Origin: an uncultured delta proteobacterium | Lineage (GTDB): Bacteria; Desulfobacterota; RBG-13-43-22 | Reading direction: 5' to 3' | Assembly: GCA_963802945.1 (NCBI GenBank) | Contig: CAWDKY010000017.1 | Location: 128,001 to 192,000, forward strand | DNA length: 64,000 nucleotides | Part shown: piece by piece, positions 2,305 through 20,743 of the stretch | Numbering within the stretch: the first letter of the stretch is position 1 | Layout of the letters: each line of letters starts with the position of its first letter | Notes under the pieces: generated by a model | The model's input: the letters and a program-made list of their open reading frames with translations, nothing else | Told to the model about the DNA's origin: nothing | The model's database searches: none | Made by a program: the position numbers and the translations under genes

Positions 2305-4225
2305 ATGAAACGAAAAATATATTTGCACATGAAATCCTTGGAAGAGGCCCGGGAACTCTTTTTGAATTGTCTGGACTATGGCCGGATGTTGACCGGGGAA
2401 CGAATATCCACAGTGGAAGGCATGGGGCGCATCCTGGCTGAGCCGGTCTTTGCCCGGTTTTCTTCACCTAATTTTCACGCCGCGGCCATGGACGGTATTG
2501 CTGTTTTGGCTGAAGATTCTTTTGGAGCAAGCATTGACCAACCCAAACAATTTCGGATCGGGAAACAGGCCTTTTGGATCAACACCGGTCAGCCAATGCC
2601 TGCGGGAACTAATGCCGTCATCATGGTCGAGCAGATCAATCTGATCGAAGAAGATCTGGCGGAGATCCAGGCGGCGGCCTTTCCCTGGCAATATGTGCGC
2701 AAGATGGGGGAAGACCTGGTGGCTACCGAACTTCTCCTGCCCCAGGGGCACCGCATAACCGCTTATGATTTGGGGGCCTTGATCGCCGGGGGAGTTTTTG
2801 AACTTCCGGTGATCCAAAAACCAAAAGTGGTGCTGATCCCAACCGGGTCCGAGCTGATCGAATGGCAGGAAATGGCCAAATCATTGCCCCCCGGAAAGGT
2901 CCCTGAATATAATACCCTGATCCTTTCCGGACTGGTACATGAATGCGGGGGAGAGCCGGTTCGCTGGCCCATCACCCGAGATAAAAAAGAATTGATCCAG
3001 GGAACCCTGGCCAAGGCAGTGGACTCAGATTGTCAAATGGTCATCATCAACGCCGGTTCTTCTTCCGGCAGTGAGGATTACAGCCTGACGGCCATTGAAG
3101 GTCTGGGAGAAGTCCTGGTCCATGGCGTGACCATCATGCCCGGAAAACCTACCATCCTGGGAATCATTCAGGGCAAGCCGGTGATCGGAAATCCCGGCTA
3201 TCCGGTATCGGCCACCATATCCTTTGAACAATTCGCCCGTCCGGTGCTTTTTAAGATGCAGGGCATCGCGGCACCGGATCGGAAAAAGGTTCCGGTCTAT
3301 CCGGCCCGGGCTTTTCCTTCTAAACTGGGGCAAGAGGAATTTCTCAGGGTCAATCTGGGCCGGGTGGGGGATAAGATCATTGCCAATCCATTACCTCGCG
3401 GGGCCGGGACCATTACTTCTTTGACCCGTGCCGATGGCATTATTCGCATTCCCATGAATTCGGAAGGCATTAACTGGGAGGAGCCGGTTCTGGCCGAACT
3501 CCTGCGGGAGGAAACAATCCTTGCCCACACCGTGGTCATTGTCGGCAGTCATGACAATACATTGGACCTACTGGGGAATTTTTTATCCAGACAATATCCG
3601 AAATTTCGTCTGACCTCCAGCAATGTGGGCAGTACCGGGGGCTTGATGGCCCTGAAGCGGGGGATTGCCCATGTGGCCGGTTCTCATTTGCTGGATCCCG
3701 AAACCGGCGGGATATAATATCACCTATATCCGGCGTTTGATCCCGGATGTGCCGGTCAAGGGCGTCAATCTGGTATTGCGTCAGCAGGGATTGATTCTGG
3801 CCAAAGGGAATCCCAAAAAGATAATCGGCCTGGAAGATATGGCTCGAAAGGATGTGGCCTTCATCAATCGACAGGCCGGGTCTGGGACCCGTATTCTACT
3901 GGATTTTCGATTGAAGGAATTGGAGCTTGATCCGTCCGATATTCGCGGTTATGAGGAAGAAGAATTCACCCATATGGCTGTAGCCGTGGCCGTCCTGAGC
4001 GGACGGGCTGATGCGGGCCTGGGGATTTATGCCGCAGCCCGGGCCTTGGATCTGGATTTTATCCCGGTGGTTCAGGAGGAATATGATCTGGTCATTCCTG
4101 ACAAATATTATGAAGAGGAAAAAATTCAAGCCTTGTTATCGGTCATCCGGTCAGCCAATTTTCAAGAGGCCGCGAAGGCCCTGGGAGGCTATGACCTTTC
4201 TTTAACCGGGAAAATCATTTTTTAA
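2305..4225 (+). CDS. moeA: MoeA fused to a periplasmic-binding (PBP) type C-terminal domain (frameshift near 3710)
   Basis: MDGIAV, PGKPT, GNPGYP, then GSHD/GSTGGL and INRQAGSGTR, THMAVA in ORF 3665..4225; GAGGAG SD before ATG 2305. Confidence 0.88.
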
Positions 4226-9071: not shown

Positions 9072-10250
9072 TCAATACATCATATCCTTTAACAACGCTC
9101 CCAACCGTTTTATGCCCTTCCTAATGGTTTCTTCATCGACGCTGGAAAAATTTAATCGCAAGGTATTGACCTCTTTTTTATTGATATAGAAAGGGTCGCC
9201 GGGCACAAAAGCCACCTTCTTGTTGATCGCCTCATTAAAGACCTCCATGGCCGACAACCCTTCCGGCAGGGTAATCCAGAGGAACATCCCTCCTTCCGGT
9301 TGGGTATACTGGGTTTCTTCTGGAAAGTATTCTCTGATGGCCGACACCATGGCATCTCTTTGCCTTCCATAGGCTTGCCTGATTTTGGCGATATGTTCAT
9401 TGATATCATTATCCTTCAAATATTGCATAATGATTCTCTGGCCGAAATAGTTGGTATGGAGGTCAGAGGCCTGTTTGGCGATGATAAGCTTGTCCATAAT
9501 TTCGTCCTTGGCCACAATCCAGCCGATCCTGAAAGACGGCACGACAATCTTGGAAAAAGATCCCAACAGGACCGTATTTTCCGGAATGAGTTGGTAGAAA
9601 GAGGGTTGGTCTTTTCCTAAAAACCGCAGCTCCCCATAAGGATCGTCTTCAATAAGGATCGTTTTTTTGTCTTTCAATATACGGGCAATTTCCTTGCGAT
9701 TTGGCTCCGAATAACTGATCCCGGAAGGATTTTGAAAGTTCGGAACACCATACATTAACTTGATCGGGTGTTGGGTTGTTGTCTGCTCAAGCAGGTCGGT
9801 GACCATCCCTTCCGGGGTCACCGGTATCGGGAAAAACGTGGCCCGGTAAATGGAAAAGGCCTGAATGGCGCCGAGGTACCCCGGTTCTTCGATAACGACC
9901 TTGTCTCCCTCGTTGAGAAAGGTCTTGCCGAGAAGATCGAGCCCCTGCTGGGAGCCGGTAGTAATCAGGACATTATCGGCCTGGACCGTAATATGTTTTG
10001 ACTTATACCGGTTAACAATCCATTCCCGTAATTCTTCAAAGCCTTCAGAGGTGCTGTACTGGAGCGCATCCTTACCGGCGGTTTCCAGCACCTTTTGAGT
10101 GGCCGCCTTTATTTCCTCCAAAGGAAACAGATCCCGGCTCGGCAATCCGCCGGCAAAGGAAATAACGGATTCGTCTATGGTAAACTTCAAAATTTCTCTG
10201 ATAAACGACCTAGGGACATCGGAAATCCGGTCTGAAAAGATATTGCCCAT
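9072..10250 (-). CDS. PLP-dependent class I aminotransferase (LysN/AvtA-like)
   Basis: SFAGGLP, FQNPSG, EDDPYGEL, GSFSK, LRLNFS. Confidence 0.9.
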   Translation of the reverse strand: MGNIFSDRISDVPRSFIREILKFTIDESVISFAGGLPSRDLFPLEEIKAATQKVLETAGKDALQYSTSEGFEELREWIVNRYKSKHITVQADNVLITTGSQQGLDLLGKTFLNEGDKVVIEEPGYLGAIQAFSIYRATFFPIPVTPEGMVTDLLEQTTTQHPIKLMYGVPNFQNPSGISYSEPNRKEIARILKDKKTILIEDDPYGELRFLGKDQPSFYQLIPENTVLLGSFSKIVVPSFRIGWIVAKDEIMDKLIIAKQASDLHTNYFGQRIIMQYLKDNDINEHIAKIRQAYGRQRDAMVSAIREYFPEETQYTQPEGGMFLWITLPEGLSAMEVFNEAINKKVAFVPGDPFYINKKEVNTLRLNFSSVDEETIRKGIKRLGALLKDMMY

Positions 10251-10442: not shown

Positions 10443-11636
10443 TTATGAAGCCCCACAAAAACCAATAATTGTCTCGGCTACTATTTTAGTAAGGGTTATG
10501 ACCGACTCGAAATCCACGTATTCCGTGGCGGCATGAAACCCCTCCCCGCCGGGGCCGATAATAACCGTCGGTATACCTGCTGCCGTCATGATGGCCGAAT
10601 CCATCCATCCGCTTACGCCGATAAATTCCGGAGCTTGTTTTACGACTTTGGAGTATGCTTTAGCCAAAGCGCCGACTACTAAATGATCCCGAGAAACTTC
10701 GAGGGGAGGCCGGTAAAAAGAGACCTCGAAGCTGGCTTTAAATTGTTCATCTTCCGTACCGATATTTTCGAGCAGGGTTCTCATTTCTTCTTTCACTGTT
10801 TCAACGGATTCTCCCGGTATGGTCCTTCTTTCTAATTCGATCAGACAATAATCAGGATAAGTGCTGAGTTCGGTTCCTCCTTTGATCAGGGAGGCATGGA
10901 TGGAGGGTGAACCCAGCAAGGGATGTTTTTTTTGCACCAAAATGTTATTTCCGAGATTTTCTATTCGGCCTAAAAATTTTCCTGCCTTGACAACGGCATC
11001 AATGCCTTTATCCGGCCGGCTTCCGTGGGCGGCCTTACCGAAAACTTCAACTTTAATCCAGGCGAAACCCTTATGGGCGATACAAACCTTTAAATGGGTT
11101 GGTTCACAGATGATGGCGGCGTCGGCAGAGAAGTCCTTAATCAACATTTCCGTGCCAATACTCAGGTATTCCTCATCGGCTACAAAGGCCAGAATCACAT
11201 CCCCTTTGGGTTTCAGGCCCGCATCCCTAATGGATTTAACGGCGGTCAGCATGGCCCCTAAGCCACTTTTCATGTCAAAGCTGCCTCTTCCGTAAACCTT
11301 GCCGTCTTTAAATACAGGGTTTAAGGGTTCAATGTTCATCCCGGATATGCCGACGGTGTCTGTGTGCCCATTCAGCATGATGGATCTGCCTTCACCGCTG
11401 CCTTTAAGCACACCGATCACATTGACTCGCTTCGGTTTTATTTCCTGATAATGGACCTCCAGACCCATCTTGCTTAAATAATTTCCTAGGTGTTCGGCAA
11501 TCAGGTACTCACCGTTTCCCATACCGGCCAGTTCAGGATTAATTGATTCAATGCGGATCAAATCCTGCACAACCCTTAACAGCTCTTTTTCATCAATAGA
11601 AATATTGCTCAACTCCAAACCCTTTCTAAAATTCAT
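10443..11636 (-). CDS. M20 family ArgE/DapE-like deacylase
   Basis: NGHTDTV, GRGSFDMK, DEE, CEPT, C-terminal HAATE. Confidence 0.9.
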   Translation of the reverse strand: MNFRKGLELSNISIDEKELLRVVQDLIRIESINPELAGMGNGEYLIAEHLGNYLSKMGLEVHYQEIKPKRVNVIGVLKGSGEGRSIMLNGHTDTVGISGMNIEPLNPVFKDGKVYGRGSFDMKSGLGAMLTAVKSIRDAGLKPKGDVILAFVADEEYLSIGTEMLIKDFSADAAIICEPTHLKVCIAHKGFAWIKVEVFGKAAHGSRPDKGIDAVVKAGKFLGRIENLGNNILVQKKHPLLGSPSIHASLIKGGTELSTYPDYCLIELERRTIPGESVETVKEEMRTLLENIGTEDEQFKASFEVSFYRPPLEVSRDHLVVGALAKAYSKVVKQAPEFIGVSGWMDSAIMTAAGIPTVIIGPGGEGFHAATEYVDFESVITLTKIVAETIIGFCGAS

Positions 11637-12150: not shown

Positions 12151-12262
12151 GCTTCTATCCTTTTCCTTCCAAGCTCAATCCCTCTTCCCGTTGTATCCCT
12201 AATACAGGGGATCTATTTATTGACAAAAAGGATGTCATTAGAACCGTCCTTTAATACTTGTC

Positions 12263-12445
12263 CTATTTCTGAGCTGTAGTAAAAAAATTGACCAAAAATT
12301 CGCTTTCCTTGGGAGACAGGTTGAACCTTTCCCCGGCCTTGTCAATCAGTTCGGCCAGAGACGGCTTGGGAACCAATTCTCGCTGTTCGCTGATCCAGCT
12401 GATGGCCCTTCGCAGCAATTCACCTTCAGGTAATGGGGCAGCCAT
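12263..12445 (-). CDS. Small hypothetical protein (~60 aa)
   Basis: GGAGG SD before ATG 12445; EGELLRRAISWIS...RFNLSPKESEFL. Confidence 0.65.
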   Translation of the reverse strand: MAAPLPEGELLRRAISWISEQRELVPKPSLAELIDKAGERFNLSPKESEFLVNFFTTAQK

Positions 12446-12516
12446 AAAAATCCTCCTTATTAATTCCATTTGGCGGCCAAAAGAAAAACCCGACCGTTAA
12501 TTCAATTCCAATAAAT

Positions 12517-12621
12517 GAGTTCAAATCTTTTTTCTTGACGTTAGGCCGGCGCGCACTCCTCGTAGAACCCCTTTTTTTCTGAAGAAAGGTTATGAATTGT
12601 CAAGATTAAAAATTTGGCCCC
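12517..12621. repeat. Inverted 24-bp REP-like doublet (REPIN-like)
   Basis: GAGTTCAAATCTTTTTTCTTGACG vs reverse complement of right arm GGGGCCAAATTTTTAATCTTGACA. Confidence 0.55.
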
Positions 12622-12628
12622 AAAGACT

Positions 12629-13268
12629 TTAGCGCTCCATTTTCTTGGCCATGGCGGTAATCCAATTCTTTTGAGGAAGGTTATCAATTTCAACACTATG
12701 GTATCCCGCTTCAGTTAGAAAATCTTTATATTCATCTGGAGTATGAATTCGCATATCGCTTAAGTTAGCCCATTTGGTATTTCGTGTTTCGAATCGATCA
12801 TCTTTATAAACTTCATTGACAAGTAGAAGGGTTCCTCCTGGTTTTAAAACGCGCTTAATTTCTTTCAGATCGTCTATTAAATTCGGCCAAAAATAGTTAG
12901 CTTCAAATGCCGTTGCAAGATCGAACCTATGGTCTGCAAAGGGCAGAGATGAAACAGCGCCATATTTTATTTCCACCAGACCCTTTTTGATCAGAGTCTC
13001 ATTTACCTTTTTTGATAATTGGACCATATCTTCAGAATAATCAATTCCATAAACTTTTCCGTTGGGACAAGACCTGGCTAACTCCTGAACGCCCTTACCC
13101 CCGCCACAGCCAATATCAAGAATGGTTGCATCGGGCTTAATAGACAATGTGACCAATCCCCCAGTGTCTTAATTTAGCATGGCCGAAATTCATCGTTCTA
13201 CCGACAAATCTACCAAATCGGCCTGTCGGTTTTCGGCATTGCTTTACGAATTTTTCAACAAATCCCAT
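12629..13268 (-). CDS. Class I SAM-dependent methyltransferase (frameshift in a G run near 13160)
   Basis: MGFVEKFVKQCRKPTGRFGR from ATG 13268 (AAGGAG SD); LDIGCGGG, VLKPGG in ORF 12629..13156. Confidence 0.85.
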
Positions 13269-13282
13269 GAAAGGCTCCTTTA

Positions 13283-13357
13283 GGGCTTAACGAGGCACAG
13301 GGCAAAGTCCTCAATTGAAAGACATCGTGACCAAGTCGTTCTTTCATGAATGTCCCC
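13283..13357 (-). repeat. 75-bp direct repeat, copy 1
   Basis: Minus strand GGGGACATTCATGAAAGAACGACTTGGTCACGATGTCTTTCAATTGAGGACTTTGCCCTGTGCCTCGTTAAGCCC; colinear with copies 2 and 3. Confidence 0.92.
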
Positions 13358-13391
13358 ATTACTCCCAATATTATTAAAACTCCTTCTTCAA

Positions 13392-15029
13392 CTACGTACT
13401 TTTCAATTTCTTTTTCCTCTGTTTCTCTTCATACATTTGGTTGTCGGCCTGGATCAAGAGGTTATCTATAGAAACCGGGTGCTCCGGGTCATAGCGGACA
13501 ACTCCCATACTCATCGATAATGGATAAGGGCGGTTTGTTTTTTCATTAAAAAGATCGAGGTTCTTCTGCAACCTCTTCAACATTAACTCAGGACCGACTT
13601 CCGGGGCCGCTTCTATAGTCAGGATTACAAACTCATCCCCTCCAATACGGGCCAGGATATCCGGATCACGAAAGGTTTCCTTCAGGATACGGGCGGTGTC
13701 GATCAAGGCTTGATCCCCTTGCAGATGTCCAAAGGTATCATTGATGACTTTCAAATCGTCCAGGTCGTTGAAGAGTAAAAAAGTTCCCCGTTTCATACGG
13801 TTGGCAATCTTCAACTCCTGGCTGGCCAAGGTTAAAAATCCTCGGCGATTATAAAGCCCGGTCAGTTCATCCTCTAAGGACATGGCCTTTAAAGCCTCTT
13901 CGGCCAGCTTTCGCTCGGTAACATCCTGGTTGCTGGCCCTTTGGCCAAGAGTTCTTCCGTCGACACTAACAACGGGATAGCAAACATGAGCAATCCAATG
14001 TTCCCGGCCGTTTCGATCGATAATTCTGAAATCAATTGGAAGCACTTCACCCTTTTCTGATATTTCATGATGATGTCTGATCATGATTTCCCGGTCGTCT
14101 GGATGAATGATCTTATATAAGAGATTGGGATCTCTTAGAAAGTCTTCACGAGGATAGCCGGTAATTCGTTGACAGGAAAGAGAACTGTATAGAAATTTTT
14201 GATTCGGGTCCAACCAATATTCCCAATTATAGGTAAAATCGGCTATCGTGCGAAAGCGTTCTTCAGATCTCTTGAGCGCCTCCTTCTCTTTTTTGCGTTC
14301 AGTGACGTTGCGGATATTACATTGAATGAACCTGGTCTTGTTGATCAGATAGATATCGGCATAAATAACTTGCCCGGCCTTATTTTTTATCGAAACCTCT
14401 TCGTTATGAATCAGGCCGTTCTTATTCAAGATATGGTTTATCTTTTGAATAGCATACAGATCAGGAGGGAAACCCACATCCTGAAGCTTGTTCCCGATGG
14501 ACTCCTCTTCCGAATAGCCAAGCATTTTTCTGAAGGCAGGATTAGTATAGGTTATATTCCCTTGACTTTTTTCGAGAAACAATATCCCGCTCTCTGCGGT
14601 CTCAAAAAGACGCCGATAGCGCTCCTCAGGCTCCACTAATAAATCTTCCTGTCGCCGGCGTCCAGTCAGGTCTTCTATGGCCAGTAAGATTATCTCAGAA
14701 CCGACATCTTTTTGAATGATACGGCGGGCATTGAGCAACATGATTTTAGGCCCGATGTTTGGAAAGAAATGTTCAACCTGATAGTTATCGATTTTTTTGT
14801 CTTGGGGGAGAATATCTTCAAGCAACCTTCGAAGCCAAGGAATATCCCATTGCCGGTTTCCGAGGTCATAGATAAGATGGCCTAAGGTTTCCTTGGATGT
14901 TATCTTAAAGGTTTGATAAAAACTCCTGCTGGCCTTAAGAACCTTCAGGTCTGAACCCAACACTAAAAAAGGCTCACTTACGGTCTCAAGAACGTCTTCA
15001 ACTATAGAGCCTACCTGAGCTTTCAACAC
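13392..15029 (-). CDS. Multi-PAS diguanylate cyclase
   Basis: PAS segments, DELTGLYNRR, NDTFGH, RIGGDEF; start uncertain. Confidence 0.9.
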   Translation of the reverse strand: MLKAQVGSIVEDVLETVSEPFLVLGSDLKVLKASRSFYQTFKITSKETLGHLIYDLGNRQWDIPWLRRLLEDILPQDKKIDNYQVEHFFPNIGPKIMLLNARRIIQKDVGSEIILLAIEDLTGRRRQEDLLVEPEERYRRLFETAESGILFLEKSQGNITYTNPAFRKMLGYSEEESIGNKLQDVGFPPDLYAIQKINHILNKNGLIHNEEVSIKNKAGQVIYADIYLINKTRFIQCNIRNVTERKKEKEALKRSEERFRTIADFTYNWEYWLDPNQKFLYSSLSCQRITGYPREDFLRDPNLLYKIIHPDDREIMIRHHHEISEKGEVLPIDFRIIDRNGREHWIAHVCYPVVSVDGRTLGQRASNQDVTERKLAEEALKAMSLEDELTGLYNRRGFLTLASQELKIANRMKRGTFLLFNDLDDLKVINDTFGHLQGDQALIDTARILKETFRDPDILARIGGDEFVILTIEAAPEVGPELMLKRLQKNLDLFNEKTNRPYPLSMSMGVVRYDPEHPVSIDNLLIQADNQMYEEKQRKKKLKST

Positions 15030-15141
15030 AATGCTTTCCCCGCCAGGTTGAATGATTGATCTTAATTCTTAAACATTCTTTTTCTAAACCAATAGAATAA
15101 CGGGGACAACGTCCCATTTTCTTATAAATATCTTTCTATGC

Positions 15142-16066
15142 TTAATTCCTCTTCCCATAAGGCTTCCGCCCATAAGCAACGATGATATCATCCGTAATTT
15201 TCACGACCCCTTTGCGCTCGAAGTAGTTGCGTGCTTTTATGGTTTCTTTGTTCCTCTCGATCGGAGGGACCTTGGCATACCACCAGTTAGAGGATATAGC
15301 GGCAAAGAAGTCATAGGCTTCCCCTCCGGTCTTGAAAGTGTTCCGCCAGGTGAGCCTGTTGGTCCGGATATCGACCAGGCCGGCTTTCGCCAGGAGTCGT
15401 CGGACCTCTTGTTCCTTCCGAGGCCAGAATTCCAAACGGTAGCCAAGGACATACCGCTTGTTGATTACCCTGAATGAGGCGTCACAGGCTTCCCAATAAT
15501 GCTCGGGACCGTGGGCGCCGACTGAAAGAAGGCCGGCGGGACGAAGAACGCGAACCATCTCGGTCACTGCTTTTTCCGGGTCGGGAAGTAACCCCAGCAT
15601 CATTCCGGTCATGACAAAGTCGAAGCTTCGCATCTTCAAAAGGCAGGGATTCGGCATCAAGCTGACGGAAATCAATGCGGTCGGCGCCGTAGCCTTGTCT
15701 ATCTGCTTTGGTCCGACCTACCTCCAGCATGTAGTTGGAGATGTCTCCGCAGACTACTTTGGACGCACCTTTCTGCAGGGCGAGTAGGGATATGATCCCG
15801 GTGCCGCAACCCACGTCCAGCACTTCCTTGCCTTGGAGATCCACTCCTTCGAGCTGGGCTGTTGCCGCCTTCGTCTGAAACTCCGCTCCCAGCTCATCAT
15901 ACCTGGTCACGTGTTCCGAGAAAGCACCGTCATATCCCTGCCTCATACGGTCCTTCATGGCGGCCGTGTCTCTGGCGTTGCCCGTGAGCCAGGCTAAGAT
16001 GTTATTGGCATTGACCATCAAGGTCATCGGCAGCGAAAGCTTACCGGTCCAAAAAATTGTGGGCAT
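15142..16066 (-). CDS. Class I SAM-dependent methyltransferase (frameshift near 15630)
   Basis: LDVGCGTG, DAESLPF in ORF 15482..16066; EMVRVLRP in ORF 15142..15675; GAGGAGG SD. Confidence 0.85.
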
Positions 16067-16125
16067 AAGATTATACCTCCTCGTTGGAAAATGGGTGACC
16101 CCAATGACTCCTGCAGTTTCTGCTC

Positions 16126-16200
16126 GGGCTTAACGAGGCACAGGGCAAAGTCATCATTTGAAAGACATCCTGACCAAGTCGTTCTTTCATGAATATCCCT
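16126..16200 (-). repeat. 75-bp direct repeat, copy 2 (abuts the LysE stop codon)
   Basis: Ungapped match to copy 1 with a few substitutions. Confidence 0.92.
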
Positions 16201-16862
16201 CAAGTCCAGTTGACACTGTAAATTGTTTTTAAAGCATAATATAAGGCCATTAACCCAAATATTATTAAAATGATGTTGGAAAAAAGAATCAGGCCTTTTT
16301 TTAACTGGTCGTTTATTCTCTTTTTTAATTTACTGACGATAAAAGTAAGTGGGACAAACCATATCAACACTCCCAGCATGATCAATGATACCGATACTAC
16401 CCCATAATTTCTGTAAGTTGGAAATTTAGTATTCCAAATTAGAAAGAAATTCCCTGACACAACAATCCAACCCGCTATGGTCAAAGGATTAGATAAGGTG
16501 ATCAAAATACCGGAAATAAATGTAGCCAGTGGATTAGATTGAAAACCTGATTTATTTTCTTCGATTCCAAGGTTCTTTCTTATTGAACTTATGGATGACA
16601 TTCCAAGAATGATCAATATTATTCCACAAACAATCCAAAGTACGATTTTTAAATATTGATTGTTTGAAATGAGATTGGCAACTCCAATATAAACGAGTGT
16701 TATATAAAAGATGTCCGAAAGACATGATCCCAAAGTGAAAAAAATACTATTTCTGAATCCATATTGAAGCGCTCTTTGACAAGCGATAATAGTGACTGAA
16801 CCCGGAGGAACCGCAACAACTATACCTAACAAAACTGCCGATATTAAATATTCAGTTAACAT
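16200..16862 (-). CDS. LysE/RhtB-family translocator (AT-rich)
   Basis: PPG near N-terminus, ITLSNP, multiple hydrophobic helices. Confidence 0.85.
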   Translation of the reverse strand: MLTEYLISAVLLGIVVAVPPGSVTIIACQRALQYGFRNSIFFTLGSCLSDIFYITLVYIGVANLISNNQYLKIVLWIVCGIILIILGMSSISSIRKNLGIEENKSGFQSNPLATFISGILITLSNPLTIAGWIVVSGNFFLIWNTKFPTYRNYGVVSVSLIMLGVLIWFVPLTFIVSKLKKRINDQLKKGLILFSNIILIIFGLMALYYALKTIYSVNWT

Positions 16863-16974
16863 ATTTACTCAAATCTATTTTCGCCCGATCTCAAAAAAAT
16901 AGGTGACCCGAAGACCAGCGCAGGCTCAATCCCTTTCCTCATGATAAGGATTATGGCTCTTGTTGTTTCTGTTC

Positions 16975-17049
16975 GGACTTAACGAGGCGCAGGGCAAAGT
17001 CGTCAATTGAAAGACCTCCTGGTCAAGTCGTTATTTCATGGACGCCCCC
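16975..17049 (-). repeat. 75-bp direct repeat, copy 3 (most diverged)
   Basis: Ungapped match to copies 1 and 2. Confidence 0.9.
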
Positions 17050-17070
17050 TAACTCATTTCTGAATTAATT

Positions 17071-17137
17071 GGCCAACACCTTTCCTCATAATAATCAGCC
17101 GCAAGTGTACCGAGTCGGCTGGATGATTCTGTTATAA
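17071..17137 (-). other. Degenerate integron attC-like site
   Basis: TTATAAC-AGAATC-ATCCAGCCG...CGGCTGAT (extra C in left arm); GTTGGCC core displaced by ~10 nt. Confidence 0.55.
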
Positions 17138-17313
17138 ATAGCAACTTGATTTGTTGTTAAAGTCTAAATAGGCATTATAGTATTCATAGGGGTATTTAAA
17201 TAATCTTATAAAATTAAATAGTTATTATATGTCTCGTGTGAATTAGAATTAGAATTCACACATTTGAAGCAGTATACCATTTTTCAAACCTATCACAAAC
17301 CTATCAAATTTAT

Positions 17314-18045
17314 TAGGGACATAATACTTATATCACTTTCTAGATGGCCTACCAGGTTTTCTCTTTGACAGATCTCGAGCCGTTAACCGTTCTATTATTT
17401 TCATAAAAGAAGCCTCACCTACCGGTCGCCCGGTACGGGTCATTTTCCGAATCTCTTGATCTTTGTCTTTGGTCGCCTGACTTAAAAAATCCATCCAATT
17501 CTCCACCAAACCTCTTAGAGTTCGATCTTCGACCAACGGGTCCGTATTTCGTCGCCCTACATGAAAAGCAGCGCTGGACCAGGGATAAGCCCACGCCCTT
17601 TTAGCCATTCCAGCTCGCACTGGATTCAACTCCACGTATGCTGTAGCAGCTAATAAATGCCTCTCATCTAAAACACAAGAATTGAACCTTCCTTGAAAAA
17701 GATACCCCCGTACCCCTTCGGCAAAATTTTTCATCCGCGTATAACGACGATGCCCTTCCCCAAAAGCACGCGCCAGAGAATCTTCCTGCTTTGGAACCGC
17801 AATAAAATGAACATGGTTGGTCATTAAACACCAAGCCAAAATTTCTACTCCAAACCGCTTCGTCTCTTCAGACAAAAACTGAAGATAAGTTTGCCGATCT
17901 AAATCGGTCTGAAATATCTCCATCGACCGAACACCGCGCTGTGTGACATGGTGGGGGTACTTTGGTACCACTATCCTCTATATTCTAGCCATAACCTCTC
18001 AATTACCTTACTCACGATATCAATGATATAAGTATTATGTCCCCA
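17314..18045. mobile_element. RAYT (TnpA-REP) element bounded by 22-bp inverted repeats
   Basis: TAGGGACATAATACTTATATCA (17314-17335) and TGATATAAGTATTATGTCCCCA (18024-18045), 21/22 complementary. Confidence 0.85.
17333..17992 (-). CDS. REP-associated Y1/HUH transposase (RAYT); in-frame TAG at codon 5
   Basis: MARI*RIVVPKYPHHVTQRG, MTNHVH (HUH), LFQGRF, YVELNPVRAG, YPWSS. Confidence 0.88.
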
Positions 18046-18101
18046 GATTTAAGCAGAATGCCCTTAAGGGTCGTCGTGCCTGCAGCGAATTGTTATGTAC
18101 C
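18046..18101 (-). other. Left half of an attC-like site overlapping a stop codon; right arm missing next to the RAYT end
   Basis: GGTACATAAC-AATTCG-CTGCAG; the TAA is the stop of 18093..18857. Confidence 0.55.
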
Positions 18102-18857
18102 GCCAGACCTAATCTTTGACATCTTGTTCACAACCTCTACACATAACCCCCACAAATCCTGTACCTCTTGAATGTCATAGATTTTTTCTGGGTGCTGAGT
18201 CGGATTCCTAAACGACGACCTAATGTTGTCTAGGTTTTTCAGTAGTGCTTCGTTCATCTTCGCTCTTCTGTGACTCAAAAGAGCTTGAACCATTGGTCCC
18301 CATAGCATCGGTTTGATACGGTTTTTTTTAACAAAATAACAGTAAAGCTCTCGCAACTCTGACTCTGTGCCACGCAACAAATGAAAAGCAGCGGCGGTAG
18401 GTCGCTCAAAAGCAATGCATTTCCCGGCCTCCGAAAAATCGTACTGAGCGTGCCTGGATAATAAAGAAAAGACTCCCGGAGCCAACAACGAAGGAACATC
18501 TCCTAACAAGCGATCCGTATCAACCCGTTTTTGAGAAACAACATATGCAGTTTTTAGTGTTATTTCTGAATCAAGAGTTTTGCGGAAAACCTTGATCGTA
18601 TTTTGCAGTTCCATTGCCTGTTCGTTCGTTAATTTTGAACCCTCTGGTAGAGCTTTGAATTTTTTTCGAAGCCGGCGCAAATCTTCAGATGCACCCCGAG
18701 ACACCGGAAGATTAAGATCATCTATATACTTCAGAACTACTTCAATATTACTAATTACAAAGAGTTCCCCATAGAGAGGTTGTCCAGGAGGGGCGCTATT
18801 CAAGTAGCGAACGTGCGCACCAAACTTGTAGAACTTTTGTATAGAAATTTTATTCAT
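18093..18857 (-). CDS. Hypothetical protein with HEPN-like C-terminal domain (cassette-like gene)
   Basis: AAAFHLLRGTE and FRNPTQHP (RxxxxH). Confidence 0.65.
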   Translation of the reverse strand: MNKISIQKFYKFGAHVRYLNSAPPGQPLYGELFVISNIEVVLKYIDDLNLPVSRGASEDLRRLRKKFKALPEGSKLTNEQAMELQNTIKVFRKTLDSEITLKTAYVVSQKRVDTDRLLGDVPSLLAPGVFSLLSRHAQYDFSEAGKCIAFERPTAAAFHLLRGTESELRELYCYFVKKNRIKPMLWGPMVQALLSHRRAKMNEALLKNLDNIRSSFRNPTQHPEKIYDIQEVQDLWGLCVEVVNKMSKIRSGGT

Positions 18858-19371
18858 AGGCGCTCTTTAAGGTACAGAACAAGTTATTCTAAAATTTTCC
18901 GTACATCTCCACAAATCAGAAGATTCCTGCGGGTTTCTATTAAATGACAATTCTTTTTATTTGTCTTTTAAAAAGAAGCTTTTTTGTTTCTTCTTCAACT
19001 TACTCATTATAAATTATTAATAATCTTTTGATAGATATTTTATAACCAAGTACTTAACCCTACTGTATATCATTATTAAGGATAGGCAGAAATAGAATGA
19101 TCCTTCATGTCGCCCATTCCCTCCTCAATTCAGATGCAATTTTGGAAATAGTTGTGAAATACAACAACATCAAAATCAAAAGGGTTTTGAGCTTGATTAC
19201 AAAAGAAAGATGTATGACTAAAAGCAACAGGTGTTTGCTTGGGTGGATCTTTTGAGATATGGATCAGGGCCATGAATCTCCTTAAGATCTAAAGAAAGGT
19301 TTTTGTACGAATAAGACTGAAAGGAATCATAGAATATAACTGGCTAATTTGTAAAGGATATTATTTTATGC

Positions 19372-19400
19372 TTGACAAAAGTTAGCAAATTTGCTAACCT
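19372..19400 (+). promoter_or_regulatory. TA operon promoter with palindromic operator
   Basis: TTGACA-17 bp-TAACCT; perfect palindrome GTTAGCAAATTTGCTAAC at 19381-19398. Confidence 0.75.
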
Positions 19401-19407
19401 CATTATC

Positions 19408-19731
19408 ATGAATTATGCGATAAAATATTTCCATGCTCGCGTCAAAGCTGAGATCGAAAGATGGCCGGACGATTTATTGGCTGATTATGCGCGGATAGTG
19501 GAATTATTAATGGAGTTCGGGCCAAATTTGCGAATGCCGCACTCACGGGCTTTGGGCGGCGGACTTTTCGAGTTAAGGCCTCGAGGGCGAGGGGGTATTG
19601 GACGGGCATTTTACTGCTTTATCATTGGTCAGCGCGTTGTATTACTCCACGCCTTCTTGAAAAAAACACAGGATACCCCGGAACAAGAATTAAGAATTGC
19701 CCGGAGAAGAATGAAAGAGGTACAGAAATGA
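19408..19731 (+). CDS. HigB/RelE-like (Gp49-type) toxin
   Basis: GPNLRMPHSRALGGGLFELR, LLHAFLKKTQ. Confidence 0.88.
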   Translation: MNYAIKYFHARVKAEIERWPDDLLADYARIVELLMEFGPNLRMPHSRALGGGLFELRPRGRGGIGRAFYCFIIGQRVVLLHAFLKKTQDTPEQELRIARRRMKEVQK

Positions 19732-20087
19732 CTGATTTAAAATATCAACCCGTTTCCCATGATCATACATCTTTCCTCAAAAAAGCCCTTAAGCGGAAAG
19801 AATTCAGGAAAGTCTACGAGGAATTGGAAGAAGAGTATGCCCTTACCCGGGAAATGCTTTCCGCGCGCACCAGATTCGGCCTAACCCAGGAAGCCGTTGC
19901 GGAGTTGATGGGAACGACCAAAAGTGCGGTTTCACGTTTGGAGGCAGCCGACAAACATGCGCCATCCCTCACAACCCTCAAGAAATATGCTCAAGCCGTC
20001 GGCTGTCGCCTTGAAATCAAGCTAGTTCCTACCTCCCGCTTAACCAAAGGCAAATCGCGGACCGTAAAAAAACAGGCTGCCGGTTAG
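19728..20087 (+). CDS. XRE-family HTH antitoxin (HigA-like)
   Basis: LTQEAVAELMGTTKSAVSRLE; ATGA overlap with toxin. Confidence 0.88.
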   Translation: MTDLKYQPVSHDHTSFLKKALKRKEFRKVYEELEEEYALTREMLSARTRFGLTQEAVAELMGTTKSAVSRLEAADKHAPSLTTLKKYAQAVGCRLEIKLVPTSRLTKGKSRTVKKQAAG

Positions 20088-20378
20088 CTTTCGGAGACAT
20101 TGTAATACTGGATTCCGGCCTTCGCCGGAATGACGCCAGGCCCCCGGTGCCTGTTCCAGACTTGATCCGGGATTCGCAGGGGACCAGACAGTGTAAAGTA
20201 TGCGGTAATTACCAACCCTTATTCTGGTACCCTCACGGCCATGAAGGTTTTTCGAGTTATGAGGGAATGGATTCTCTTTTAAGGAGAGGATGGTCTTTAT
20301 AACTTTGTTATGAATCTTTGCAGGGAGATCGTCTAATTCTTTTTCAACCGATCTTTTTAGTCGGACAGTAAAAGGCAT
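20040..20378 (-). pseudogene. RelE-family toxin, C-terminus replaced by repeat-derived sequence
   Basis: RelE-like up to RIRVGNYRILYTV, then reads through the repeat at 20108-20185. Confidence 0.7.
20108..20185. repeat. Palindromic repeat fragments
   Basis: CTGGATTCCGGCCTTCGCCGGAATGAC plus a segment similar to the reverse complement of 25562-25601. Confidence 0.7.
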
Positions 20379-20587
20379 TATCTGCCCTTTTTCTTCCTGT
20401 CTGATAGATATTCATCCAGACCCCGGGAGGGTTCTTTACGACGTTGTTCGATAATAACCGTATCTATTAGATCTTCGATAAATTCCTTATCGTTCAGCAT
20501 CTTGCCCAAAACGGCCTCTCTCGCCTTTTTGGGCAAAGCCCGGAAGGCTGTCATAAAAACCTCGGATGTTGCTTCGATGGTACTCAT
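20378..20587 (-). CDS. Putative antitoxin upstream of RelE
   Basis: 69 aa, AGGAGAG SD, TAATG coupling to the toxin. Confidence 0.7.
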   Translation of the reverse strand: MSTIEATSEVFMTAFRALPKKAREAVLGKMLNDKEFIEDLIDTVIIEQRRKEPSRGLDEYLSDRKKKGR

Positions 20588-20743
20588 GCTAAGTCTCCTC
20601 CTAATCTAGATGGCTTAAATTATAACAAAAGAGGAAAAATTATCAATCCTGTTAATAGAATCACCTGGAGGCCGCGATTATTTAATCTCATATCCTTTTT
20701 GCAGAGCTGTGAAATATAAATAACTGGAACGTCCCTTTTATTT

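Follow-up and report, generated by a model that had tools for sequence, protein, structure and literature searches.

Repeats resembling a cassette array in an uncultured delta proteobacterium are probably remnants of a small inverted-repeat element

Three co-oriented repeats lie between unrelated genes in a 64,000-nt stretch of DNA from an uncultured delta proteobacterium (contig CAWDKY010000017.1, positions 128,001 to 192,000; the whole stretch is here called the window). They are probably the left-arm remnants of a genus-restricted, non-coding inverted-repeat element of ~200 nt, similar to a miniature inverted-repeat transposable element (MITE), whose copies are found in a strain-variable island of accessory and defense genes. 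The finding is a small element family of a familiar type, the family itself being previously undescribed. A first-pass annotation of the window had proposed instead an array of gene cassettes shuffled by a RAYT, possibly with the help of an integron integrase (IntI). The observation behind that proposal is confirmed, and its cassette interpretation is partly supported.

A repeat search of the window returned one repeat family with three copies, at 13261-13363, 16104-16206, and 16953-17055, separated by 2843 and 849 nt. When each copy was compared by blastn with the whole of the window's own genome (G000, an assembly of 4.37 Mb), it matched only the other two: 94.6% identity over 74 nt between copies 1 and 2 (E 3e-27), 85.2% over 88 nt between copies 2 and 3 (E 2e-22), and 84.6% over 78 nt between copies 1 and 3 (E 1e-18). 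This similarity is far above chance. These are the same three direct repeats, each upstream of a gene start, that the first-pass annotation had described, and the genome search that it had suggested finds no copy elsewhere. The genes it had named (RAYT, methyltransferases, PAS-GGDEF, and LysE), the motif GTTAAGY, and a GGGAC-GTT-GTCCC palindrome (at 15103-15115) are also present. In the minus-strand orientation, which is that of the genes, copies 1, 2, and 3 start with GGGGACAT, AGGGATAT, and GGGGGCGT and carry GTTAAGC, GTTAAGC, and GTTAAGT, respectively. Copy 1 lies 34 nt past the PAS-GGDEF stop codon; copy 2 begins at the stop codon of LysE and is followed by ~20 nt of LysE-type leader and then by methyltransferase 2; and copy 3 lies 282 nt past the stop codon of the RAYT-like gene. 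The description of ungapped units of 75 bp holds only in that the repeats are real: they are not bounded at 75 nt, as the profile matches span 90-134 nt and run beyond GTTAAGY.

The reason for this longer similarity is found in the congeners and in metagenome contigs, where the window repeat is the left arm of an inverted-repeat element of ~200 nt. The comparison set consisted of 14 genomes of the genus (labeled G0xx) and, more widely, of 21 genomes of the order, that is, these 14 plus 7 other genomes of the family or order. Stretches extracted from relatives and metagenomes were added (L070, L073, L077, L078, L087, L097, L099, L100, L104, and L108), L097 being the island of G005 (contig G005:C67), L099 that of G011, and L100 that of G008. 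Twenty copies of the element were aligned with their flanks, and a profile built from 5 full-length copies was used to scan the window and the relatives. Of the 20 aligned copies, six are full-length or almost full-length (~190-205 nt), and their inverted termini match. The full copies start with GGGGACGTCCATGAAATAAC and end with GTTATTTCATGGACGTCCC, and their terminal inverted repeats are perfect over 19 nt within a stem of ~25 bp. Pairs of exact or near-exact terminal 19-mers in the correct inverted arrangement are found twice in G010:C25 and once in G010:C38. The free energy of single-stranded DNA folds was compared with that of 200 shuffles. One complete copy forms a long hairpin closed by ~25 bp at -31.9 kcal/mol, against -16.6 +/- 2.8 kcal/mol for the shuffles (z -5.5, with 0 of 200 shuffles as good). 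GTTAAGY is internal to the element, at about positions 68-74. Hence, the "75-mer" does not join a RAYT end motif to an integron core, as had been suggested; it represents the initial third (to two thirds) of the ~200-nt element. The element has three traits of a MITE, namely terminal inverted repeats, small size, and no coding capacity. Its only ORF-like feature is the mini open reading frame (ORF) ATG AAA TAA, which is found in 9 of 12 aligned copies and is not conserved.

The element is present in 7 of the 14 genus genomes, with 15 matches (6 in G010, 3 in G000, 2 in G005, and 1 in each of G006, G008, G011, and G012), and a search for the terminal 19-mer in the 7 other genomes of the family or order found none. 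Pattern scans of public genome and metagenome collections matched 23 genome and 31 metagenome stretches. According to a sequence-model check, the true copies among these come only from close relatives (L077, L087, L070, L073, and L078), the rest being chance matches, and the titled records among the true copies are metagenome-assembled genomes of Thermodesulfobacteriota or "Deltaproteobacteria." In G010 the element is dispersed over four contigs, and its neighbors there are unrelated: VapBC and metabolic genes, a Fer4 gene, and a pyrimidine-dimer glycosylase. Copies with perfect termini are found only in the G010/L077/L087 lineage.

Solitary terminus-like sites are also seen. One of them, GGGGAC(A/G)TCCATGAAATAATAACTAGACAAGG(T/C)CCCC, is orthologous in G000:C16:28811-28850 and G005:C13:48326, immediately follows a conserved gene in each genome, and forms a GGGGAC...GTCCCC hairpin with a 25-nt loop. 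At three such solitary sites, inspection by profile and ORF listing revealed no second terminus nearby. A dispersed repeat of ~500 nt (L104:9508-10025), unrelated to the element, has more than 100 matches over all 14 genus genomes, ~20 of them in G000, and shows the genome to be rich in repeats.

The window contains no intact copy of the element, and parts of it are found between the genes (Table 1). Direct alignment with 5 right halves confirms ~40 nt of the profile match at 15124-15160. In the minus orientation this fragment is followed by the GGGAC-GTT-GTCCC hairpin and then by GTTATTC, which by eye resemble a decayed right terminus (compare CATGGACGTCCC-TTATTTC). Copy 2 (positions 9-108) and this right fragment, ~1 kb downstream, bracket ~950 nt that contain methyltransferase 2. 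Copy 1 and the middle-part piece at 12164-12189 likewise bracket methyltransferase 1 and a 68-aa ORF, because a metagenome contig joins a left arm through that same piece to the DinB gene, the intervening genes being absent (joint 12189-16990). In G005, an arm (positions 10-84) at 9356-9431 and a middle part (positions 79-155) at 11276-11351 flank the PAS-GGDEF gene. Judged by their layout, all three look like a single element that 1-2 kb of cargo interrupts.

The points at which the arm gives way to downstream DNA are scattered over about nine positions of the element (~50, 64, 72, 79, 80, 83, 100, 128, and 140). The junction at ~50 leads to DinB in G010 and L077, that at ~64 is an internal deletion in G010:C38, and that at ~72 leads to PAS-GGDEF in G005. 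Copy 1 breaks off at ~80, G010:C23 at ~83, copy 2 and the arms before LysE in G008, G011, and G012 at ~100, copy 3 and the DinB junction of the window at ~128, and the arms before a ZIP transporter gene in G005 and L073 at ~140. Seven further joints among the same element and gene parts were found in 4 metagenome runs, whose contigs cover at most 0.16 of the sampled words each and are therefore taken as evidence for alternative arrangements only; no RNA run was among those listed as containing the sequence. Such scatter fits decay and illegitimate recombination, not a single crossover site. Thus, of the idea that conserved sites shuffle single-gene cargo, one part stands, in that cargo does sit between conserved parts of the repeat, and the single crossover point does not.

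Table 1. Element parts, genes, and other features of the window and its hypervariable island.
Feature	Coordinates	Strand	Remarks
Middle-part fragment GGGAAGAGGGATTGAGC	12164..12189	-	17-nt piece, directly upstream of DinB-like gene; repeat search
Hypervariable island between flanks conserved with G005	12172..20677	.	91-97% nt identity outside, rearranged inside
Degenerate short site AAGGACGGTTCTAATGAC	12234..12251	-	After 68-aa ORF; resembles left end of second element (G005, L077)
Methyltransferase 1	12629..13268	-	Split into 43-aa and 175-aa ORFs, frameshift near 13145
Copy 1, left arm	13271..13360	-	90 nt, profile positions 12-111; fused to methyltransferase-1 leader
PAS-GGDEF gene	13392..15029	-	Shared with G005 at 93.6% nt identity, neighbors differ on both sides
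Middle/right element fragment	15092..15178	-	Profile 120-156 at 15124-15160, E 0.003
Methyltransferase 2	15142..16066	-	Two overlapping ORFs (frameshift near 15627); lies as cargo between copy 2 and right fragment
Copy 2, left arm	16107..16206	-	100 nt, profile positions 9-108
LysE-family exporter gene	16200..16862	-	Downstream of left arm in G000, G008, G011, G012
Copy 3, left arm and middle part	16923..17056	-	134 nt, profile positions 8-141; fused to LysE leader
Second middle-part-like fragment TTATTATGAGGAAAGGTGTTG	17074..17094	-	24 nt upstream of copy 3; repeat search
RAYT-like unit	17316..18043	-	Coding sequence 17333-17971, perfect 20-nt inverted repeats on both sides
Short GGGAC...TTATTT site GGGACGTTCCAGTTATTTATATTTC	20711..20735	-	Just after conserved amidohydrolase gene, upstream edge of island

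The three repeats lie in a hypervariable island. The flanks are collinear with those of the closest genome, G005 (the window up to 12172 at 91-95% identity and from 20677 at 97%), and the DNA between them measures 8.5 kb in G000 against 14.3 kb in G005. The blocks in common between the two islands (methyltransferase 1, PAS-GGDEF, a ParE-type pair, and HigBA) lie in different neighborhoods. Gene content and order differ also in G008, G010, G011, and G012, so the order of the genes between the repeats is not fixed and the cargo varies, as the first-pass annotation had anticipated. LysE is found behind the left arm at the same general locus in G008, G011, and G012, the other cargo varying: a TIR-domain protein (TIR_2), an RnlA-like toxin, and ParE in G008; a Shedu SduA-like protein (SduA_C) and a cyclase in G011; and HicB in G012. 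The island of G005 carries CHAT-TPR and GmrSD-like (GmrSD_N) genes. From its gene content, the locus behaves as a hotspot for defense and accessory genes. At the upstream end of the island (window 19372-20378 and 20378-20587) there are toxin-antitoxin genes, which are partly common to G005, G008, and G011: the plus strand carries a Gp49/HigB-like toxin and an HTH antitoxin, the minus strand a ParE-like toxin and a small partner.

The genes around the repeats comprise those of two methyltransferases of class I, of a PAS-GGDEF protein, and of an exporter of the LysE family, together with a Y1 (IS200-like) transposase-like ORF. Both methyltransferase genes are split into two overlapping ORFs (window 13137-13268 and 15482-15675). 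At 13145, and again at 15627, one base is missing from metagenome contigs of relatives (three contigs each), so that G000 has either frameshifts or single-base assembly errors in both genes; the ortholog of methyltransferase 1 in G005 is intact, with 212 aa. A search of 20 other genomes of the family for the DNA of methyltransferase 2 found none; metagenome contigs do cover it. The ORF at 18093-18857, previously called HEPN-like, has no significant match in Pfam or NCBIfam. Upstream of it, at ~18862-18900, lies a motif, TTTAGAATAACTTGTT, that recurs in a 49-nt repeat near an IntI remnant on contig C41 (L108 7416-7464 and 11934-11982) and that may be a shared operator or site.

A plausible history of the element starts from its having no transposase of its own. 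It would have been mobilized in trans by a separate enzyme, its copies coming to lie just downstream of co-oriented genes in the accessory and defense island, and later insertions, deletions, and recombination between copies would have produced the patchwork of truncated and gene-split copies. The left arm may, in addition, feed transcription into the genes that follow it. The genes inside or against element halves would then recall the mobile insertion cassette (MIC), that is, a MITE with passengers. MICs are inverted-repeat units that carry passengers but lack a transposase. The element resembles MITEs and MICs in its size of ~200 nt, in being non-coding, in its perfect 19-nt terminal inverted repeats, in the occurrence of several copies in different contexts, and in the interruption of some copies by ~1-2 kb of passenger DNA. 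The excerpts available from PMC5444012 and PMC3129680 likewise present the MIC as a unit bounded by inverted repeats, with passenger genes and no transposase.

Several observations weigh against the MITE-like interpretation. There is no direct repeat indicative of a target-site duplication at the flanks of the 6 full copies, no autonomous insertion sequence with these termini in the 21 genomes of the order, and no plasmid match to the element. For a MITE, the copies are very few (3 in G000 and never more than 6 in a genome of the genus), they are concentrated in one variable island, and 14 of the 15 genome copies follow a co-oriented upstream ORF, a bias that random transposition does not predict. 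No clean pair of filled and empty orthologous sites was found. At the orthologs of the G010:C23 and G010:C38 insertion contexts in the 14 genus genomes, homology ends near the element and no intact empty site is seen. The nearest to an empty site is the 3' end of LysE, where relatives carry a short GGGAC...CCC-TATTT hairpin in place of the arm of G000. No unit bearing cargo was seen at two different loci, so that loaded elements are only putatively mobile. Finally, the presence of methyltransferase 2 in G000 and its absence in G005 leave CGTTA at both edges, as a site-specific core would do; this is a single event, for which a 5-nt microhomology accounts equally well. The lack of target duplications and of an autonomous partner, the low copy number, and the uniform orientation keep confidence in the MITE-like interpretation moderate, and they leave room for a targeted mechanism directed by hairpins.

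Such a mechanism can be phrased as a cassette system unrelated to integrons, which is quite unlikely as matters stand. Short GGGGAC...GTCCC-TTATTT hairpins downstream of genes would be landing sites, and at least three inverted-repeat units (the ~200-nt element, a GGTTCTC...GAGAACC element, and the RAYT unit) would insert into them, regenerating the site on both sides. Genes enclosed between halves would then be gained, lost, and shuffled, the driver being a RAYT-like HUH enzyme or a recombinase acting in trans. The brackets of the three units do match: GGGGAC|GTCC...GGAC|GTCCC for the element, GGGGAC|ATAATAC...GTATTAT|GTCCC for the RAYT unit in both the window and L087, and GGGGAC|GGTTCTC...GAGAACC|GTACCC for the second element in G005. 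The second element (GGGGACGGTTCTC...(85 nt)...GAGAACCGTACCC, then GTTATTT) lies at 11160-11275 of L097 (G005:C67), adjoining PAS-GGDEF downstream; its left end recurs in L077 at ~4080-4140 and, in degenerate form, in the window at 12234-12251.

Closely related is the possibility, unlikely though less so than the landing-site scheme, that the three families are REPIN-like, in the sense that a RAYT-type HUH enzyme recognizes on single-stranded DNA the shared GGGGAC...GTCCC head or hairpin of the element, of the second element, and of the RAYT's own repeats, and moves them, sometimes with adjacent genes. In the excerpts available from PMC3337134 and PMC3116915, REPINs are doublets of REP sequences mobilized by RAYTs. 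The common bracket is what one would expect from this, as are the lack of target duplications and the consistent orientation, both known from single-strand HUH transposition. Like REPINs, the element has two inverted arms that form a long hairpin (in the full copies of relatives, the window copies having one arm only), and a RAYT-like gene with flanking inverted repeats is nearby. However, the protein encoded at 17333-17971 scores 56.2 bits against the NCBIfam model REP_Tyr_transpos (NF047646), below its cut-off of 80, and 30.5 bits against Pfam Y1_Tnp, above the cut-off of 23; it resembles Y1 HUH transposases, its subfamily being uncertain. The repeats that flank it (17316-17335 and 18024-18043, beginning (T)GGGGACATAATAC) are not the arms of the element: between the RAYT repeat GGGGACATAATACTTATATCA and the element terminus GGGGACGTCCATGAAATAAC, the consensus shares only the first 6 nt, GGGGAC, and a T at position 8. 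The start of copy 1 had been reported as identical to the RAYT terminal repeat, but the 8-mer GGGGACAT is a substitution in copy 1, found also in a G011 copy (GGAGACAT), and the family consensus does not have it. REPINs also come in tens to hundreds, against a handful of copies of the element. Nor are hairpins of the form GGGAC-N0-6-GTCCC enriched in the genome of G000, with 30 occurrences against 4-46 for seven control arm sequences.

The distributions of RAYT and element, the comparison of which had been suggested, do not seem to match in the assemblies. At 83% aa identity or more, the RAYT is found in the assemblies of G000 and G004 only. G004 has 2 close copies (83% aa), 5 paralogs (48-49% aa), and 10 matches to the RAYT repeat, but no element. 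Conversely, 6 of the 7 genomes with the element (G000, G005, G006, G008, G010, G011, and G012) have no close RAYT in their assemblies, and in five of these (G005, G006, G008, G011, and G012) no RAYT exceeds 45% aa identity. The sixth, G010, probably carries an unassembled RAYT, because two of its contigs begin inside the RAYT repeat. The 18-nt RAYT repeat occurs 9 times in G000, 10 in G004, 5 in G010, and 0-3 times in the other genomes. In favor of a link, the RAYT adjoins copies of the element in two lineages, that of the window and that of L087, and perfect termini are confined to the lineage in which it is probably present. L087 is 99.9% identical to G010:C6 over 4.7 kb and carries the same RAYT unit (2680-3418), with five repeat copies, between two copies of the element. 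The five flanking repeats (TCTGGGGACATAATACYTATATCGATTC...) are clustered upstream of the unit, at 1384-2700 of L087, and one RAYT-repeat copy lies 30 nt before a complete copy of the element. On balance, the link between the RAYT and the element is weak.

An origin in an integron is very unlikely. Here AAATAAC...GTTAAGY would be a recombination site for an IntI located elsewhere or lost, as in a cluster of attC sites lacking an integrase (CALIN), and genes would be exchanged at G|TTA. The repeats do separate unrelated single genes in one orientation and contain a GTT motif; the cargo, of strain-variable content, is typical of cassettes (toxin-antitoxin pairs, methyltransferases, DinB, and LysE), and no integrase is nearby. 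The sites also follow the clustering rule given with the definition of CALIN in the excerpt available from PMC4889954, namely two or more sites on one strand, separated by less than 4 kb. CG|TTA is found at each edge of the methyltransferase 2 difference between G000 and G005, and a metagenome contig carries the G005 form. Yet the 81-nt window copies, folded on both strands, give z values of -0.50 to +0.29 against 200 shuffles; they have no attC-type fold, in agreement with the first-pass annotation, which had noted that they do not form hairpins like those of attC. In the best attC-like pairing (TAACGA/TCGTTA with an inner helix), none of the 12 pairs shows a compensatory change, and shuffled columns do equally well. 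The similarity between copies continues for 8-120 nt beyond GTTAAGY, arms join genes at about nine positions and not at one G|TT, and the inverse core is AAATAAC or AAAGAAC, not RYYYAAC. The full element is a near-perfect long palindrome that lacks the bulged, spaced layout of R and L boxes.

As for the integrase, congeners do have IntI, at 295.6 bits in G010 (above the cut-off and cut by a contig edge) and at 247 bits in G011 (partial). The trans-acting IntI postulated earlier finds no counterpart above the cut-off in G000, where the best TIGR02249 match, at 79.6 bits against a cut-off of 265, is Xer-like. A 25-aa C-terminal remnant of IntI is present there on another contig, C41. In the 12-19 kb of sequence surrounding IntI in G010 and G011 there is neither a copy of the element nor a repeat array. 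The G000 remnant (G000:C41:19297-19371; L108 5298-5372) is 80% identical to the IntI of G010, and the DNA flanking it shares synteny with the locus of the partial IntI in G011. Beside it there is only a two-copy direct repeat of 127 nt (L108 5410-5536 and 11817-11943, 91% identical).

The least probable explanation is that the left arm is a cis-regulatory module, kept upstream of diverse genes as a promoter, a leader RNA, or a tiny upstream ORF. The arm is strongly conserved (mean column identity of 86% across aligned copies), persists where right halves are lost, and in 13 of the 15 genome copies lies upstream of a gene in the same orientation. However, the downstream genes are functionally unrelated, and the distance from arm to start codon ranges from ~60 to 490 nt. 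A riboswitch or leader RNA was rejected, as no Rfam 15 family matches the repeats, either at the gathering threshold or at E up to 10, and neither candidate helix shows covariation. A conserved leader peptide was rejected because the mini-ORF is not conserved, with a stop at codon 3 in copy 3 and in most relatives. A promoter in the arm was also rejected, no sigma-70-like site being called inside any copy.

In conclusion, half-decayed inverted-repeat elements between co-oriented accessory genes can mimic an integron-like cassette array. The comparison documents that, in a genus of uncultured Thermodesulfobacteriota, one chromosomal position holds a hypervariable island of accessory and defense genes, with toxin-antitoxin pairs and, in relatives, Shedu, TIR, RnlA, CHAT, and GmrSD genes. 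Three repeat families share the GGGGAC...GTCCC bracket, and genes are found repeatedly between complementary halves; if a targeted mechanism were true, this would be a new route of gene capture.

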